Positions 546 to 32,810 of a stretch of 40,301 nucleotides of DNA are shown one piece after another (within the stretch, counting starts at the first letter, position 1; every line of letters starts with the position of its first letter). The notes under the pieces are model-generated. The model did not search any database and was not told where the DNA came from. It saw nothing but the letters and a program-made list of their open reading frames with translations. Made by a program: the position numbers and the translations under genes. This DNA is from a virus (taxonomy: Duplodnaviria > Caudoviricetes): positions 1 to 40,301 of IMG/VR virus record IMGVR_UViG_3300027711_000006. One strand, 5' to 3'.

Positions 546-2229
546 ACGCCCGGTGTGCGGGTGGACGTTCGACGGCGTGTCCTGCCGTAAGCGGGGGGAT
601 CACCACTGCAAGCAGCGCGCCGACCACGTTGTTGCGTTCTTCTCTGAGGTGTTGGTGCACACCAAGGGCCGATACGCCCGTAAGGCGTTCGTGCCCACGG
701 TGTGGCAGGAGAAGGAGATCCTTCGGCCGTTGTTCGGTGAGGTGGTCTGGTCCGTCGAGCAGGGCGAGTATGTGCGCCGTTACTTGGTGGCGTGGATCGA
801 GCTGGGGAGAAAAAACGGGAAAAGTGAGCTGCAGGCCGGGATCATGCTGTACCTGCTTGTGGCTGACAACGAAGAGAGTGCGGAGATCTTCGGGTGTGCC
901 CGTAACCGCGAACAGGCGTCTTTGGTGTTCGATGTGGCGTCGCGGATGGTGCAGCTCAGCCCTGTGTTGTCGCGCCGGTTGCAGGTACGCGCGCACGTGA
1001 AGCGGATCATCGACCCGAAGACCAACAGCTTCTACGTGGCGATCCCCGCGGACGCTCAGTCCGCGCTCGGCTCGAACCCTTCGGGTGTGGCCGCTGACGA
1101 GATCCTGGCGTGGCCCAAGCGGGACCTGTGGGACTCGATGCGTACCGGCATGGGTTCGGGCGCGCGCCGCCAACCGCTCATGGTCGCAGCGACGACCGCG
1201 GGCAACGACCCGCAGAGCTTCGCGGCGGGGATGCACAACGAGATGCAGCGCATCGCTGATGACCCGGCCCGGAACCCGCGCACGTTCGTGTACCTGCGTA
1301 ACACTCCCGACGACGCGGACCCGTGGGATGAGAAGAACTGGCACCACGCCAACCCCGCGTTGGGTGATTTCCTGTCGTTGGAGGCGCTGCGTCAGGAAGC
1401 GTTGGAGGCGCAGAACGACCCCGCGTCGGAGAACAGCTTCCGCCAGTTCAGGTTGAACCAGTGGGTGCGGCAGACGACCCGGTGGATGCCGATGCACCTG
1501 TACAAGGCGTCCGCGGGTGAGCTGTGGTTGGACCCTGAGTGGGGTCGTGAGCAGTTGGCGGGTCGGGTGGCTTGGGGCGGTATGGACCTGTCGGCCAAGT
1601 TCGACCTCACCGCCTGGTGCGTCCTGCTCGAACCTGAGCACGCGGGCGGTCCTTTGGATGTGTTGTGGCGGTTCTGGCTCCCCGAGGATGCGCTGCCGCG
1701 CCTGGACGACGAGAACGACGGCAAGTTCAGCCGGTGGGCGCGGGACGGCTGGTTGACGGTAACCGAAGGCAACATCCAGGACTACGACCGCATCGTGTCG
1801 GACATCGAGGCCGACGGTGAGCATTTCGAGTTCGCCGGGTTCGACTGTGATGAGTGGTCGATGTGGCCGATGATCAACCGCGTCGCTGACGCCCTCGGGC
1901 TGGACGCCGAGTCTGGTGAGGTCATGGCGTACAAGAACACCTACGACCGGATGACGCCCGGCATGGACGAGGTCATGGCGTTGGTGATGAACAACAGGTT
2001 CCGTCACCACGGAAACCCCGTCGCAGAGTTCTGCTTCGACACGGTCGAGGCGCGGGTGGCCCCGTACAACCCGGATTTGAAACGCCCGGACAAACCGGAA
2101 CGGGACAAGTCGGGGAAGCGGATCGACGCGGTGCCGGTGGCGGCGATGGCCGCGGCGGCGTGGCTGCTGCGCGGTGATGAGGACCAGTACGAGTCGGCGT
2201 ATGAGAAGCGCGGCGTGACCGTCGCCTGA
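517..2229 (+). CDS. terL: Terminase large subunit
   Basis: Walker A GRKNGKS, Walker B VAADE, motif III TTAG, RNase H-like GGMDLS and KRIDAVPVA. Confidence 0.97.
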   Translation: MAARTGSSPKRPVCGWTFDGVSCRKRGDHHCKQRADHVVAFFSEVLVHTKGRYARKAFVPTVWQEKEILRPLFGEVVWSVEQGEYVRRYLVAWIELGRKNGKSELQAGIMLYLLVADNEESAEIFGCARNREQASLVFDVASRMVQLSPVLSRRLQVRAHVKRIIDPKTNSFYVAIPADAQSALGSNPSGVAADEILAWPKRDLWDSMRTGMGSGARRQPLMVAATTAGNDPQSFAAGMHNEMQRIADDPARNPRTFVYLRNTPDDADPWDEKNWHHANPALGDFLSLEALRQEALEAQNDPASENSFRQFRLNQWVRQTTRWMPMHLYKASAGELWLDPEWGREQLAGRVAWGGMDLSAKFDLTAWCVLLEPEHAGGPLDVLWRFWLPEDALPRLDDENDGKFSRWARDGWLTVTEGNIQDYDRIVSDIEADGEHFEFAGFDCDEWSMWPMINRVADALGLDAESGEVMAYKNTYDRMTPGMDEVMALVMNNRFRHHGNPVAEFCFDTVEARVAPYNPDLKRPDKPERDKSGKRIDAVPVAAMAAAAWLLRGDEDQYESAYEKRGVTVA

Positions 2230-21697: not shown

Positions 21698-21937
21698 ATG
21701 TCTCAGAAGGTCGAAACGAAGGTCACCATCGCCACGTTCGCCAGCCTCGCCGCTGGTGTGCTGCTGGCAGTGCTGACCGCTGTCCAGTCCGACCCGACGG
21801 TGATCGGCGGGCTGCCGGACACGGTGCAGTTCCTGATCATCGCCGCCCTGCCTCCGGTACTGACGTTCCTGGGCGGGTACACGGCCCCCCACACCCCCCG
21901 ACCTGGAGCGGCGGCCAAGAGTGACCGTCACCTCTGA
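21698..21937 (+). CDS. Holin (actinomycete 2-TM type)
   Basis: VETKVT...two TM segments...FLGGYTAPHTPR; follows endolysin. Confidence 0.8.
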   Translation: MSQKVETKVTIATFASLAAGVLLAVLTAVQSDPTVIGGLPDTVQFLIIAALPPVLTFLGGYTAPHTPRPGAAAKSDRHL

Positions 21938-22460
21938 CCCGGGGTGGGACCTGATCCCGTACCCGGAGCCGGTGCTGGAGTTTGAGCCAGACCGGGTGAT
22001 CAAACGCTACCCGCCGCTGATCCGGCACCGGTTGGACGTGGAGGTGGCCGCCTACCGTGCATGCGCGTGGGCGGCCCCCCGCCTGCTGTGGGTCACCCCG
22101 CAGGCGATCTGTGTGGAGCGGTGCACCCCGCTGTTGGACGCACCCCGAAACCCTGACCACGCGGTGCAGCTACACGCCCTGTTGGTGAAGTTGCACGCCA
22201 CGGGGTGGGCGCACCGGGACGTGTCCGCACCCAACATCGTCCTCCACCCGACCAGGGGGGTGCTGTTGATCGATTGGGAGACCGCCGGGCGGTGTGACCC
22301 CACCCGGCCGTCGTATGACCTGCATGGTGCTGCTGCCGCCGGGTTCCCTGCCGAGTTGTTGCCGCTGCACCAGCGGCCTGACGGGGTGTGGTGGGGCGGC
22401 CCCGGTTATGACGCCCCCGCGAAATATTGGGGAGGTGCCGGTGCCGACCTCGGACGGTGA
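21921..22460 (+). CDS. Minimal protein-kinase-like phosphotransferase (APH/RIO/Kdo-like)
   Basis: VIK lysine, helix-C Glu, HRDVSAPN catalytic loop, LLIDWE Mg-binding motif. Confidence 0.8.
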   Translation: MTVTSDPGWDLIPYPEPVLEFEPDRVIKRYPPLIRHRLDVEVAAYRACAWAAPRLLWVTPQAICVERCTPLLDAPRNPDHAVQLHALLVKLHATGWAHRDVSAPNIVLHPTRGVLLIDWETAGRCDPTRPSYDLHGAAAAGFPAELLPLHQRPDGVWWGGPGYDAPAKYWGGAGADLGR

Positions 22461-22983
22461 GGGCAAGGAGTGGGCGCGGGACGTCATCAAGCGTCTCGAT
22501 CCTGGCGTGGTGGTCGACGTCGGGCCCGGCGAGGGCACCTACGTCCACCTGGCCCGCGATGTGACTCCGGGGTGCCGGTGGATCGGGGTGGAGGCGTGGG
22601 CCCCCTACATCCCCCAATTCCAGCTGTGGGACATCTACGACTGGGTGATCGTGTCCGACATCCGCCACCTGGACCCGTACACGCTGGTCAGGGATCCGGA
22701 CCTGGTGATCCTCGCTGACGTGCTGGAGCACATGGACCAGCTGGAAGCGCGGGGTGTACTGGCCCGCATGAAGGACTGGGCGCACAACATCCTCGTGTCA
22801 GTGCCGCTCGCCCACCATGACCAGGGTGACGTCAACGGCAACTGGTTCGAGATCCACCGGGAGCACTGGACAGCGCAGCAGATGCGCAAAGAGCTCGGGG
22901 CCGGGCTGGTCGAGGCACGTGAGGGCACGGTGTTGGGCTACTACCTGTGGTCCGCGGCGAAAGCGGCGGGGGGTGGGCGTTGA
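22441..22983 (+). CDS. Class I SAM-dependent methyltransferase
   Basis: VVDVGPGEG motif I, IGVE, DLVILADVLEH; GGAGG RBS. Confidence 0.88.
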   Translation: MPTSDGEGKEWARDVIKRLDPGVVVDVGPGEGTYVHLARDVTPGCRWIGVEAWAPYIPQFQLWDIYDWVIVSDIRHLDPYTLVRDPDLVILADVLEHMDQLEARGVLARMKDWAHNILVSVPLAHHDQGDVNGNWFEIHREHWTAQQMRKELGAGLVEAREGTVLGYYLWSAAKAAGGGR

Positions 22984-24572
22984 CCAAGGTCACGGTGTGC
23001 GTGCCGTTTCGGGCGGGTGCGTTGGATCGGGAGATCCACGCTGATTACGTGGCCGCCCGGTTGCGGGAGATGCTGCCTCGGGCGCGTCACATGGTGGTGG
23101 ACGTCGAGGGCCAGTTTTCCCGCGCCAAGGTCAGGAACGAAGCCGTCAGGAGAGCCGGGGGTGGGGTGGTGGTGTTGTGCGACGCCGACACCCTCCCCGA
23201 GAAACAACCCCTGCTCGACGCGATCGCCGGCGCCGCTGACGATGGTCGGCTGCACCTGCCCTACACCCGCTACCGGGCCCTGTCCCCGGAAGGCACTTTG
23301 GCGGTGTACGCCCGCGGGGTGGATCCTCGGGACGCCCCGGTGGAGGACGAGTCACGCCGCCCCATCGGCGGGGTGTGGGTCATCCACCATGATGCGTGGT
23401 GGGCCGCCGGCGGGATGGACGAACAGTTCCGGGGCTGGGGGTTTGAGGACGACGCTTTCCACACCGCCGCCAACATCCTGCTCGGGCAGACGGTACGGCA
23501 TGAGGGAACCATCACCCACCTGCACCACCAGTCAGCGGCGAATCTCCAGTCCCCGGAGTACCGCAAAAACAAGGCCCGCTACCAGCAGTACATGCGGGTG
23601 CGTCGCAACCCCGAGCAGATGCGCAAACTCGTCGGCGCACTCGATCCCACCAAGAAACGCATCACGGTGTTGGCGCACTACTACCTGCCCGCACATCGGG
23701 CCGGCGCGGAGATCATGCTGCATGAGCTCCTGAAACCGTTGGTGGCGCGCGGCCACCACGTAACGGTGTGGGCGACTGATGAGGTCGAGGATGCCGAGGT
23801 GGACGGGGTTACCGTCCGCGCCGGGACCCCCGAGACTGTGGCTGCGGATGTGGTGGTGTCGCATCTGAAGAGCGTGCCGACCGCCAGGAAGCTCGCCAAG
23901 AAGGCGGGGGCTCGGCTGGTTCAGGTGGTGCATTCAGCGGCGCCGTGGGTGGTCAAGGATGTGCGTGCCGGCGCTGATCTGGTGGTGGCCAACTCCGAGC
24001 ATGTGGCCCGCGATCTACGTTGGCGCGGCGACATGTTGGTGGTGCATCCGCCCGTGTATGCGGATCGGCACCGCACCCGCCCGGGTAGGCGGGTGACGCT
24101 GGTCAACCCCATCCCCGCCAAGGGCGCCGGCGTGTTCTACGAGCTGGCGCGGCGGATGCCCCGTACCCCGTTCTTAGCGGTGGAGGGCGGCTACCAGCAA
24201 ACCGAACAGGTGCGTGAACGGTTGCCGAACGTGCGGTGGCAACCCCACACCGCGGACATGCGCCGCCGGGTGTGGGCTCACACCCGTGTGCTGCTCATGC
24301 CCTCGCAGGAGGAGTCCTACGGGATGGCTGCCGTGGAGGCTGCCGCGTCTGGGATCCCCACGATCGCCCACCCCACCCCCGGGCTCCAAGAGGCGTTGGG
24401 GGACGCGGGGGTGTTCGTGGACCGCGACGACATCGACGGCTGGGAGACAGCGCTGAAGGAACTGCTGGGTGCCGGGTGGGCGCTGGCGTCGAAGAAGGCG
24501 TTGGCGCGTTCCGCTGAGATCAATCCCCGCCAGGAGGTGGACACGTGGGTGCGAGCGGTCGAGTGTCTGTGA
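22980..24572 (+). CDS. Bifunctional glycosyltransferase (GT-A GT2/GT7-like plus GT-B GT4-like)
   Basis: DAD motif and GGMDEQFRGWGFED in N-terminal half; HRAGAEIM and ESYGMAAVEAAASGIP (EX7E) in C-terminal half. Confidence 0.9.
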   Translation: MTKVTVCVPFRAGALDREIHADYVAARLREMLPRARHMVVDVEGQFSRAKVRNEAVRRAGGGVVVLCDADTLPEKQPLLDAIAGAADDGRLHLPYTRYRALSPEGTLAVYARGVDPRDAPVEDESRRPIGGVWVIHHDAWWAAGGMDEQFRGWGFEDDAFHTAANILLGQTVRHEGTITHLHHQSAANLQSPEYRKNKARYQQYMRVRRNPEQMRKLVGALDPTKKRITVLAHYYLPAHRAGAEIMLHELLKPLVARGHHVTVWATDEVEDAEVDGVTVRAGTPETVAADVVVSHLKSVPTARKLAKKAGARLVQVVHSAAPWVVKDVRAGADLVVANSEHVARDLRWRGDMLVVHPPVYADRHRTRPGRRVTLVNPIPAKGAGVFYELARRMPRTPFLAVEGGYQQTEQVRERLPNVRWQPHTADMRRRVWAHTRVLLMPSQEESYGMAAVEAAASGIPTIAHPTPGLQEALGDAGVFVDRDDIDGWETALKELLGAGWALASKKALARSAEINPRQEVDTWVRAVECL

Positions 24573-25228
24573 TCATCCCGTGGGCACCGGGCGTGGGGTG
24601 TCGGCACCGTGAAGCGGCTTTGGCGTGGACCGCGTCCAAGTGGGTCGGGACCGGCCATGAGGTGGTGGTGGGGGAGAACACGGGCCCGTGGTGCAAGGCC
24701 GCCGCGGTGGCGGATGGGCTCGCTCGGGCGACCGGTGATGTGCTGGTGGTGGCGGACGCGGACGTGTGGACCCCAGGGTGGGAAGGCGCTGTCGGCCGAG
24801 TGGTGTCGGGGGTGCCGTGGGCGATGCCGCACGGCAAGGTCCACCGCCTCACCCACGCCGCCACGCAGCAGGTGCTTGACGGGCACGAGCCCGCCCGGGA
24901 GATGGATCTGACGCAGTCCCCGTATCAGGGGTGGCCGGGTGGCGGCATGGTGGTGGTGCGCCGTGACGTGTACGAACGGGCCCCGTTGGACCCGAGGTTC
25001 GTGGGGTGGTCCGGTGAGGATGAGTCGTGGGCGCACGCGCTCCGGGCCCTGGCCGGCCCTGGGTGGCGCGGTACGGCGCCGTTGTGGCATCTGTGGCATC
25101 CACCCCAGGAACGCATGTCCCGACGGTGGGGGTCCCATGCGGCGCGCGCTCTGGCGACCCGGTACGCGCGGGCGCGTACTCGTGAGCGGATGCGCGCGCT
25201 CTTAGACGAAGCACATCAGCCAGTGTGA
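24545..25228 (+). CDS. GT-A glycosyltransferase (GT2/GT7-like)
   Basis: VSVIIPW, VVADADV, LDPRFVGWSGED, WHLWH. Confidence 0.88.
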   Translation: MGASGRVSVIIPWAPGVGCRHREAALAWTASKWVGTGHEVVVGENTGPWCKAAAVADGLARATGDVLVVADADVWTPGWEGAVGRVVSGVPWAMPHGKVHRLTHAATQQVLDGHEPAREMDLTQSPYQGWPGGGMVVVRRDVYERAPLDPRFVGWSGEDESWAHALRALAGPGWRGTAPLWHLWHPPQERMSRRWGSHAARALATRYARARTRERMRALLDEAHQPV

Positions 25229-25265: not shown

Positions 25266-25324
25266 GTTGTGTCCGGGTCCGGCCACCGGCTCTGCTCGTC
25301 CGTGCCCGGTGCGATGATCACTCC

Positions 25325-25546
25325 ATGGGCGATGAGATCACGGTGGAGCTGGTGGGCGGGCCGCTGGACGGCCAGAGGCTGACGTACACCCTCCAGGATC
25401 TGGGGGAGGACTGGACGCAGTGGGGCGCGCACATGATCGTGCCGGGGGAGCGGGCACACCCCGTGGATCCGAGCGCGCGAGCGGTGTACGAACCCATCCC
25501 GATGCGGCCCTGCACGCAGTGGGTGTTCGACGGGTGGGTGGCATGA
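25325..25546 (+). CDS. Small protein with VELVGGPLDG motif
   Basis: ATG 25325; motif shared with 36313-36528. Confidence 0.7.
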   Translation: MGDEITVELVGGPLDGQRLTYTLQDLGEDWTQWGAHMIVPGERAHPVDPSARAVYEPIPMRPCTQWVFDGWVA

Positions 25547-25548
25547 GG

Positions 25549-25573
25549 AAGCCCCCACCCAAGGTGGGGGCTT
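25549..25573. terminator. Bidirectional terminator hairpin abutting CRISPR repeat
   Basis: AAGCCCCCACC-CAA-GGTGGGGGCTT perfect 11-bp stem between convergent units. Confidence 0.7.
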
Positions 25574-25646
25574 ATCCCCGCGTGCGCGGGGAGCAGGTTG
25601 GTGTCTTCGCGATTGAGTGGACCACCCCCGCATGCGCAGGGAGCAC
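25569..25646 (-). CRISPR. Type I-E-like CRISPR mini-array (2 repeats, one 21-22 nt spacer), no cas genes
   Basis: Minus strand: GTGCTCCCTGCGCATGCGGGGGTGGTCC - ACTCAATCGCGAAGACACCAAC - CTGCTCCCCGCGCACGCGGGGATAAGCC; same architecture as E. coli GTGTTCCCCGCGCCAGCGGGGATAAACCG. Confidence 0.85.
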
Positions 25647-25648
25647 GT

Positions 25649-25840
25649 TCACCGGCAGTCGCACCGGCCGGTGAGCCCACACGTCTCACACGGGGCACTT
25701 GGCTGCGGCGGGTCAGTGTGCCCATCTCCTCGCCAGTCGCCGGGGAGTCTACCGTTCCGTCGTGCGGCGGCCCGGCGTTTCGACGCTTTCGACCAGCCCC
25801 GCGGCGTCTTTGGCTGTTGGTCTTTGGGTGTTTCGCCCAT
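25649..25840 (-). CDS. 63-aa basic protein with C-terminal CxxC-x5-CxC
   Basis: MGETPKDQ...CETCGLTGRCDCR; AAGGA or TGC-AAGGAT element upstream; stops 2 nt before the repeat. Confidence 0.55.
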   Translation of the reverse strand: MGETPKDQQPKTPRGWSKASKRRAAARRNGRLPGDWRGDGHTDPPQPSAPCETCGLTGRCDCR

Positions 25841-26148
25841 GGGTTCATCCTTGCATCTGGTGGTGTCTATTGGGGGTGGTGGCCGGTTCCGGCCACGTCT
25901 CACGGCGAAGGGGCCACCCCTCTTGGGATGACCCCCGGGCCCGCTTCCCCTTCGGGCCTGCCGCTCCCCACCCCCGCGGGGAACGGCCGCTTGTGCGCGG
26001 CCGGAACGCCAGGCTTCATGTCTGTCTTGCGTCCCGGCCGCCCGACACCGTGGTGCCGGTGCCGCCCGGATCCCCTCGTGCACGCCGGGACGGCGTTTTG
26101 GCCCGCACACCGGATGGGAAGGGCTGGGATACCGGCGTGCGGAAGTCT

Positions 26149-27597: not shown

Positions 27598-28839
27598 TCA
27601 GGCGGTGAGCAACCCCATCCGGTCGGCCAGTTGAGAGGCCCGCCGCTGTCGCCGTCCGTCCCTTTCGTCCAGCTCCTCCAGGAGGATCCGACGCGCGTAC
27701 CCGCTGTACCGGATCGTCTCAGGGGCCGCTTCGTGTGCGGCCTCCAGTACCTCCAGGGCGGCATCGGGTTGGGCGTCGAGGTAGTAGGCGCGGGCCTGCT
27801 CGATCTGGTGGCGTGCGCGCCGGGGCCGGGAGGGGATCGCCGCATCAGGGGCGTGCTGGGCTTGGCGGACGGACTCCCCGCCGGCCCGTAGCTCCACGGC
27901 GATGGTGACGGCGTGCGCGCCCATGATCGATTGGGAGAACGAGGTGACGGGGTGGTAGTAGTCGCGGGGGAGTCGTGCGGCCACATCGTTCGCTGCGTCC
28001 CACTGGCCCCACGCCGCTCCGATCTCTCCGCGGCGGGCGGCGGTGTACCCGCCCTCGAACAGGGTGGCGCCGTGGATCGCGGCGACGTCGGTGTTGGCAA
28101 CATCGGTGTACCTGTTGAGGAGGGTGAGGGTTTGGGAGGTGACGACATCGGCGGCGTCCCAGTCGCCGGCGTCCCGGTGGGCTTGGGCCATGAGCCAGGA
28201 GGCGACACCGATGGCGTGCAGGTCTCCGCTGTCTTGGGCGGCGACCATGCCGCGCTCGGCGACACGCCACAGCAGGTCTTGGGCGGGCTGGTAGGCGACG
28301 AAGAACTGGGTGAGTGCGTACACCTCGGCAAGGACGGCTTGGGCGGCGCGGCGGGTGGTGCGGTCCTCGGCCTGGTGGGCGGCGAGCTGGGCGTCGGCGA
28401 TCAGGTCAGGTAGCAGTCTGCCGAGCACTTCACGGTGGTGGGGTGAGGAGTGGCGCGCTGTCCAGGCTTGGCCCAGTCGGGCACGTAGGTGCTCCACGGG
28501 GGGTGCTTGGCGGTCGGTGAGGGCGGGCATCGCGTTGATCGCGGCTCGCACTTCAGGTAGCCGGGTGTGCCCGGGGCCGGTGAACAAGCTGATCGGCATG
28601 GACTGGTCTCCGGTGAGCTGGGCGAGGTCCCGCACCCTGAGGGCTTCGGCGAGCCGGAGCAGCATGGCGAGTTTGGGGGTTTGAAGGCGCCCGACCTCTA
28701 CTGCTTTGACCCAGGACCCGGATTTGCCGACGAGACCGGCGAGGACTTCGCGGGTCATACCGCGGCGTGTGCGTTGGATTTTCAGGCGTTGTCCGAAGGT
28801 GAGTTCCGTGTCTTCGGGTGTAGGGGTATCGTGGGACAT
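27598..28839 (-). CDS. XRE-family HTH transcriptional regulator with large helical C-terminal domain
   Basis: FGQRLKIQRTRRGMTREVLAGLVGKSGSWVKAVEVGRL; AAPETIRY C-terminus typical of actinomycete XREs. Confidence 0.9.
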   Translation of the reverse strand: MSHDTPTPEDTELTFGQRLKIQRTRRGMTREVLAGLVGKSGSWVKAVEVGRLQTPKLAMLLRLAEALRVRDLAQLTGDQSMPISLFTGPGHTRLPEVRAAINAMPALTDRQAPPVEHLRARLGQAWTARHSSPHHREVLGRLLPDLIADAQLAAHQAEDRTTRRAAQAVLAEVYALTQFFVAYQPAQDLLWRVAERGMVAAQDSGDLHAIGVASWLMAQAHRDAGDWDAADVVTSQTLTLLNRYTDVANTDVAAIHGATLFEGGYTAARRGEIGAAWGQWDAANDVAARLPRDYYHPVTSFSQSIMGAHAVTIAVELRAGGESVRQAQHAPDAAIPSRPRRARHQIEQARAYYLDAQPDAALEVLEAAHEAAPETIRYSGYARRILLEELDERDGRRQRRASQLADRMGLLTA

Positions 28840-29057
28840 ATCAAGCCCCGCCTTCCTGGTTGTGAGCACTTCCAGGGTACGGCGGGGCTTTCGTCGTGTC
28901 AGGCGCACGGCCGGGCCGGGGCCGACCTTCTGGTCGTGGCCGCATCCGGCCATGGCCGTTGAGCAGGGCCCGACCGCGGGCACACCCCAAAGAGGAGCGG
29001 CACGCCTGTGCCGTGAAAACCCCTACGCACGCCCCCCTGCCAGAGGACAATGCCCTC

Positions 29058-32781: not shown

Positions 32782-32810
32782 TCGGCCCCCGCACGCGCGG
32801 GGGTTTCCGC
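32782..32810 (+). repeat. Solitary type I-E-like CRISPR repeat (or terminator hairpin)
   Basis: TCGGC-CCCCGC-ACGC-GCGGGG-GTTTCCGC fits the 5+6+4+6+8 I-E repeat layout. Confidence 0.45.

Follow-up and report, generated by a model that had tools for sequence, protein, structure and literature searches.

The elements closest to the one analysed here are the Cracrs of Liu et al. (bioRxiv 10.1101/2024.10.29.618823). According to the main text of that report, CracrIE1 and CracrIE2 of a Salmonella prophage are likewise phage-borne and cas-less with degenerate I-E repeats, and their spacers of 21 and 24 nt compare with 21 nt in the present array. They share with the present guide a PAM-proximal match to the host cas locus, Cracr hosts include Actinomycetota, and some Cracrs are linked to anti-CRISPR proteins; the present cassette carries a protein gene, ORF A. 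However, the Cracrs described there mimic host CreR/CreA and target cas or creT promoters, whereas the present guide targets coding sequence. The viral mini-arrays of Shmakov et al. (PMC10120712) likewise have truncated spacers against cas loci, often mismatched at position 6. The target search outlined in that paper kept intergenic, host mini-array and CRISPR array matches, and coding targets would therefore go unscored. Engineered Cascade CRISPRi, as presented in two papers (PMC4288158, PMC4288209), also employs ORF-bound Cascade as a roadblock, but with full-length guides in cas3-deleted cells, and the two papers disagree on the effective strand.

The window, i.e. the whole stretch of DNA that was analysed, is the complete 40.3 kb record IMGVR_UViG_3300027711_000006 (GC 67%). 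A PHROGs scan of 70 window ORFs identified siphovirus head, tail and lysis genes. No cas gene was found among these ORFs, in agreement with the original prediction of a cas-less phage, and no integrase, although a repressor-like gene is located at 27598-28983. The nearest named relatives of the repressor are from Nocardiopsis (83-88%). A kinase and two glycosyltransferase genes, at 21921-25228, come after the endolysin gene and possibly serve DNA or surface modification; the block also occurs near a related cassette, L234, with 75% DNA identity. Contig loose ends at 25297 and 25910 mark module borders in related phages.

The cas8e gene is present in 38/51 Nocardiopsis genomes. The set of 40 cas loci used for comparison comprises 37 of the cas8e places (at least 50), two family loci and contig G008:C21 once more (two loci). 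The phage repeats fit one Nocardiopsis lineage, named clade A here, and a spacer of the clade-A I-E array of genome G046 (locus L229) matches the phage terminase gene at 33/33 positions. Judged by these sequence matches, the host lineage is thus Nocardiopsis with a clade-A type I-E system. In L229 that spacer is longer than normal by one base and follows a repeat whose final base is A, which is read as an AAC PAM. The remaining 26 rows of host spacer matches to the phage are weak (26-29 matches). The triplets upstream of the matches are most commonly AAC (6/27 rows), followed by GAC (5), and AAC is reported as a tested PAM in Streptomyces mobaraensis (PMC13572051). CreR-like solitary repeat-like units were observed in several host cas loci (L308, upstream of cas3 in genome G048; L176:10646; L184:10439; L180:4632). 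Their spacers are unlike the phage guides, and the G048 unit lies ~35 nt before the target of guide L235-1 described below. The host array at L193:2276-2380 has two 9-nt AC-repeat spacers with a 38-nt period and is possibly an assembly artefact.

The phage array consists of two 29-nt I-E repeats (28 nt in the original prediction) that start exactly 50 nt apart, as had been noted, and the spacer is thus 21 nt long (Table 1). The proposed comparison with host arrays yielded 26/29 identity to a Nocardiopsis clade-A repeat. The minus-strand orientation put forward for the RNA also holds, as the stem of the upstream repeat, folded as minus-strand RNA, has a U-G wobble and the matching host repeats have the same orientation. 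The usual I-E crRNA is 61 nt long, and by the same processing rules an RNA of 8 + 21 + 21 = 50 nt is predicted here, in line with the I-E guide of roughly 50 nt, about two Cas7 units short, that had been envisaged. A perfect terminator hairpin had been read at the end of the second repeat; a perfect 11-bp hairpin does overlap the repeat, but it lacks a U-tract and was not called by the terminator scan. A similar hairpin closes the L236 cassette. The convergent ORF B gave no family match.

Table 1 Features of the phage cassette and of the protospacer, in window coordinates.
Feature	Coordinates	Strand	Remarks
First I-E repeat, 29 nt	25618..25646	-	Last 8 nt (25618-25625) are the predicted 5' handle
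Spacer, 21 nt	25597..25617	-	Matches host cas7 coding strand after AAC/AAT PAM
Second I-E repeat, 29 nt	25568..25596	-	Nearly identical to host repeat over its first 21 nt; 3' end fused with hairpin
Predicted mature 50-nt crRNA-like RNA (8 + 21 + 21 nt)	25576..25625	-	Extent predicted from I-E processing rules
Perfect 11-bp hairpin between array and convergent ORF B	25549..25573		Likely terminator, no U-tract
ORF B, 73 aa, convergent	25325..25546	+	Similar convergent ORF after L234 cassette
ORF A, 63 aa	25649..25840	-	Copy of host Cas2 C-terminal tail at N-terminus; C-terminal CxxC-x4/5-CxC motif
Cas2-tail motif GWSKASKRR, ORF A residues 15-23	25772..25798	-	In 21/21 clade-A Cas2, 0/6 other Cas2
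Protospacer in terminase gene	1206..1238	+	33/33 match to spacer of Nocardiopsis clade-A I-E array (L229, G046)

The CRISPR-like element is confirmed as real by its 26/29 identity to the host repeat, its conservation among further phages and its match to a target. The loose 16-nt repeat core taken alone occurs at chance level (12 matches versus 13.7 expected). The element had no match in Rfam or, by blastn, among annotated phages, and its best self-target within the phage reaches 15/21 and lacks a seed. No sigma-70-type promoter was called upstream of the cassette, and no cassette was seen in 81 loci inspected near relatives of two adjacent proteins. A third repeat-like core at 32787 was rejected as a lone hairpin.

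Read in frame, the spacer encodes LNREDTN. In 24/30 cas8e-centred loci its best match is an N-terminal Cas7 motif, typically SNLNRDDT; the identity of the cas7 gene was confirmed by NCBIfam for locus L214. The matching sequence is the cas7 coding strand from codon 19, ~55 nt into the gene, where the Asn codon of the motif N-LNRDDT supplies the AAC PAM and the unpaired guide positions 6, 12 and 18 coincide with codon wobble bases. Guide positions 1-18 except 6 and 12 match after AAC or AAT in 9/40 cas loci. Masking each sixth base yields a full match of positions 1-18 in 9/40 loci, and 22/40 show no more than one mismatch. By comparison, 19 of 80,566 phage 18-mers match the 40 loci (7 repeats, 1 the spacer itself and 11 by chance), as do 2 of 20,000 shuffled spacers. 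The mismatches fall at positions 6 and 12 and, in clade A, additionally at 19-20/21; two clade-B loci do agree with the last 2-3 bases of the guide, where clade A does not, and have their mismatch at position 3 instead. When position 9 is left free, 18 sites are found in 17/51 Nocardiopsis genomes, 18/18 of them in the cas7 motif, against none for the reversed control. With position 9 exact, the window guide matches only 7/51 genomes, and G046, whose array targets the phage, differs from it at that position. Family-wide, 9/301 genomes match, with 9/9 sites in the cas7 motif and none in the control.

Taken together, these sequence matches make it almost certain that the guide is directed at the coding sequence of host cas7. 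The spacer search against host genomes for a seed match beside an I-E PAM, suggested at the outset, succeeded, and the notion of a guide that hijacks host Cascade gains a PAM-flanked match in the cas locus. The part of that notion that placed the target in a promoter is not borne out, as the match begins at cas7 codon 19. An anti-competitor mini-array or a decayed host array would hold a spacer of ~32 nt against another mobile element; the present spacer has 21 nt, against 32 nt in 955/1003 host spacers of the 40 cas loci, and the element is neither. Five exact 18-nt matches in viral contigs of 42-47% GC, none with a PAM, were rejected as chance.

Every sixth base of a crRNA is flipped out and unpaired. 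This has been documented for the I-F1 subtype, as related in PMC10120712. Guide mismatches concentrate at each sixth base. At positions 6 and 12 the window guide agrees with 0/18 host alleles, and the change at position 12 (guide = A) is non-synonymous at an Asp common to all 18 alleles. Guide position 9 falls on an Arg codon's wobble base, here a paired one, at which the host alleles have C (8), G (5) or T (5). All three alleles recur among the phage guides, with C in the window, G in phage L234 and T in 4/4 sequencing runs compared (from 4 studies, of at least 24 runs). In three of the four T runs all differences of the spanning contigs were accounted for, and position 9 is the only spacer change; the four runs may represent one lineage. 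Among wobble positions, mismatches occur at only 7/12 flipped ones, against 2/12 paired ones. A Fisher test of flipped versus all other positions gives p 2e-5, a value inflated by the codon structure.

The family is small, with five distinct cassettes with DNA context; L203, a near-identical copy of the window region, was excluded from the counts. Three related cassettes (L234, L235 and L236) carry four further guides, and a fourth, L233, has ORF A and a single repeat with no spacer. The 20-nt guide of L234 is directed at the same cas7 site. L236 is a prophage in genome G050, and its 26-nt guide matches the cas8e motif N-LGGVYVEG at 6 sites in 5/51 genomes, all inside cas8e and the host G050 included (control 0); against the cas8e of G050 the mismatches are at 6, 18, 22 and 26. 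L235 combines a coding guide and a promoter-region guide within one array. The former, 26 nt, matches cas3 at N-AYLDRALSW. In G048 the latter, the 20-nt L235-1, has its match behind AAC, 69-78 nt upstream of cas3, and deviates from it solely at 6 and 18; this is 1 exact site in 51 genomes, and allowing one mismatch gives 3 matches versus 7 in the control. Thus, 5/5 guides of ORF-A cassettes match the clade-A cas locus, at four different sites, and four of the five are in-frame matches to the coding strand within coding sequence.

I-E arrays of short period are frequent among phages, and 37 other viral loci were matched. Among their 89 spacers, those under 30 nt peak at 20 nt (28 spacers) and 21 nt (11). 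One of the 89, in L012, has a recognisable Cas peptide match, a weak test because the hosts of these phages differ from the loci compared. The L012 spacer (1050-1120, 21 nt, in a 49% GC phage) reads ALSAGE and resembles the Cas1 motif K-ALSAGN at the peptide level; it is possible that it is a further coding-sequence guide or chance. The phage arrays L008, L011, L026, L032 and L033 have 3-5 or more I-E repeats and mostly 20-21-nt spacers, some mixed with 32-nt ones, and L032 repeats one spacer; none of these spacers had a target in the Nocardiopsis cas loci examined. A nucleotide pattern scan returned no new viral cassettes (8/11 matches were chance).

In E. coli, Cascade with a 20-nt spacer (12 nt short) is described as smaller and as giving no interference with phage or transformation, while priming and some loss of plasmid persist with such spacers (PMC5159557). 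From these data, binding with no efficient cutting is the most likely outcome for a guide of such length on the host's chromosome. The element probably loads host Cascade onto cas7, hinders transcription of the cas operon and competes with the real crRNAs. The cassette would be co-transcribed with ORF A, and host Cas6e would cut the transcript to the ~50-nt guide. The R-loop formed by the resulting Cascade, ~two Cas7 units short, would span 18-21 bp, not enough for Cas3 to cut efficiently. Sitting at cas7 codon 19, this Cascade would act as an RNA polymerase roadblock and lower cas7, cas5, cas6, cas1 and cas2, which follow one another in this order in the loci, and the short guide RNA would additionally use up Cascade. 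Since the Asn-initial motif supplies the PAM and the unpaired positions fall on wobble bases, one guide would cover many host strains. One RNA run has contigs over the cassette, and its depth is much higher over a hairpin-rich segment upstream of ORF A (25900-26060), although contigs cannot show transcription.

The weak point of the roadblock model is that all four coding guides pair with the template strand. Rath et al. report about 5-fold silencing when Cascade was aimed at the ORF template strand (PMC4288158), whereas Luo et al. state that inside ORFs only targeting of the non-template strand works (PMC4288209). In the results given in both papers, ORF targeting is weaker than promoter targeting, and the coding strand is favoured by the field, as cited in PMC4946936.

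The RNA could instead be only a decoy for Cascade or Cas6, with the cas match a relic of acquisition or a harmless parking site. A Racr is a solitary repeat unit, presumably a crRNA mimic that competes for Cas proteins, and among the cassettes the anatomy of L233 alone, behind ORF A, fits this description; the window unit differs from a Racr in its two repeats and PAM-flanked host-targeting spacer and is not classed as one. Silencing of ORFs from the template strand may be weak (PMC4288209), and the main text of the Cracr paper (bioRxiv 10.1101/2024.10.29.618823) gives a fall in cas mRNA of only ~30%. However, all five guides match the cas locus, at different sites, and their changes pile up at unpaired positions while position 9 varies among host alleles, whereas in relics decay should be spread evenly. 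The pure Cascade decoy, one of the options originally offered, is unlikely, since the spacer has a host target flanked by a PAM.

A slow attack on the cas locus, in which the short Cascade weakly recruits Cas3 or primes uptake of self-spacers, so that the cas operon is damaged or deleted by the host itself, is quite improbable. In the E. coli work cited above (PMC5159557), priming and some plasmid loss occur even with spacers 12 nt short; two sister guides have 26 nt, and coding targets fit DNA damage as well as silencing. Against this, G050 retains an eight-gene cas operon, all eight genes giving family matches, and arrays beside the cas8e-matching prophage, and DNA outside the arrays in the 40 cas loci is matched by 0/1003 host spacers; for these two reasons the damage model is disfavoured. 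In addition, cutting of the chromosome would endanger the lysogen, and the sister guide in the same L235 array aims upstream of cas3. Three G050 spacers resemble its own prophage and lack an AAC PAM, so the prophage may persist by escape alone and its persistence is not proof of anti-CRISPR activity. An internal promoter or regulatory sequence overlapping the cas7 site, which would make the phage element an ordinary promoter-silencing Cracr, would suit the site's position only ~55 nt into cas7 and the sister guide upstream of cas3, but is very improbable given that the other coding targets are deep (~210 codons into cas8e, ~480-520 into cas3) and that no host solitary repeat or CreR with the window spacer was seen in the 40 cas loci, which come from strains other than the phage's true host.

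The stop codon of ORF A, a gene absent from the original prediction, lies 2 nt before the first repeat. Homologues of ORF A are few; each of the four distinct examples that have DNA context (L233, L234, L235 and L236) precedes I-E repeats. Cas2 was recovered by pattern in 27/40 loci (21 clade-A, 6 other) and in none of the other 13/40. The Ser codon of the shared motif is TCG in 5/5 phage copies and AGY in 21/21 hosts, which points to conservation at the protein level and not to a recent DNA copy. The host Cas2 tail aligns with GFSTAAK and GYSNAAK of Cas2-DEDDh/DnaQ extensions (PDB 8FY9, 8HI1); in the accounts of PMC10284694 and PMC10470216 this linker is called flexible and the motif is given no partner. 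For the idea of a captured segment from the end of cas2 to the array, the spacing is similar (128-150 versus 144-165 nt), the Ser codon differs and the leader similarity is weak and uneven. ORF A had no family match, an Atlas search returned only unnamed viral clusters, under 0.9, and an ORF A profile run over 401 family genomes found nothing, with ~15 candidates scored per genome. AlphaFold models were uninformative (pLDDT 44 for Cas2, 60 for ORF A). A Nocardiopsis tropica protein, P0126, has the same Cas2-tail start and a different C-terminus. Several degenerate I-E repeats surround a homologue of the P0126 C-terminal domain at L256:970-2260 (G011), and had no target in the 40 cas loci.

ORF A may compete with the Cas2 tail and so block spacer acquisition and self-priming by the short chromosomal guide, a tentative reading that is rather less probable than its negation; the risk of priming would be a speculative reason for pairing the guide with a Cas2-tail mimic. 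The full two-part anti-CRISPR is more doubtful still: code-exploiting guides, with an Asn-codon PAM and wobble flip-out, would park Cascade on conserved Cas motifs across strains, while the Cas2-tail mimic would block acquisition and shield the chromosome from self-priming.

If Cascade is indeed parked on cas7, phage RNA anti-CRISPRs extend from variable promoters to constrained coding motifs, and host escape is limited to a few paired wobble bases. The gain in breadth is seen in the cas7 site (17/51 Nocardiopsis genomes with position 9 free) versus 1/51 for the sister promoter-region guide. Cas coding sequences are a place to seek targets of orphan short spacers, since published screens covered promoters or CreR copies. 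The coding guides would let the contested strand rule for Cascade roadblocks be tested on a natural case, and the ORF A mimic offers a handle on the conserved Cas2 tail motif, for which no partner was found in the literature searched. That literature, largely without subscription papers and without the supplements of Liu et al. and Shmakov et al., held no coding-sequence target, no Cas2-tail mimic protein and no free-standing phage copy of the motif; the main text of Liu et al. has 0 matches for 'coding', 'cas7', 'Cas2' and 'Nocardiopsis'.

Set against the features that define a Cracr, the window element sits on a mobile element outside a CRISPR-Cas locus (siphovirus genes, no cas gene among 70 ORFs scanned), has a repeat like that of the host (26/29, clade-A Nocardiopsis), and, next to its cognate PAM, matches the host cas locus over at least 9 PAM-proximal bases (1-18 except 6 and 12; 9/40 loci). 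A target in a cas or creT promoter is found only for the sister guide L235-1, the window guide lying in cas7 coding sequence, and for this reason the element is filed as a Cracr variant and not as a member. By analogy, it most likely works as Cracrs do, dampening cas expression. The general mechanism is already in print as Cracr; what is distinctive here is the choice of target and the ORF A protein.
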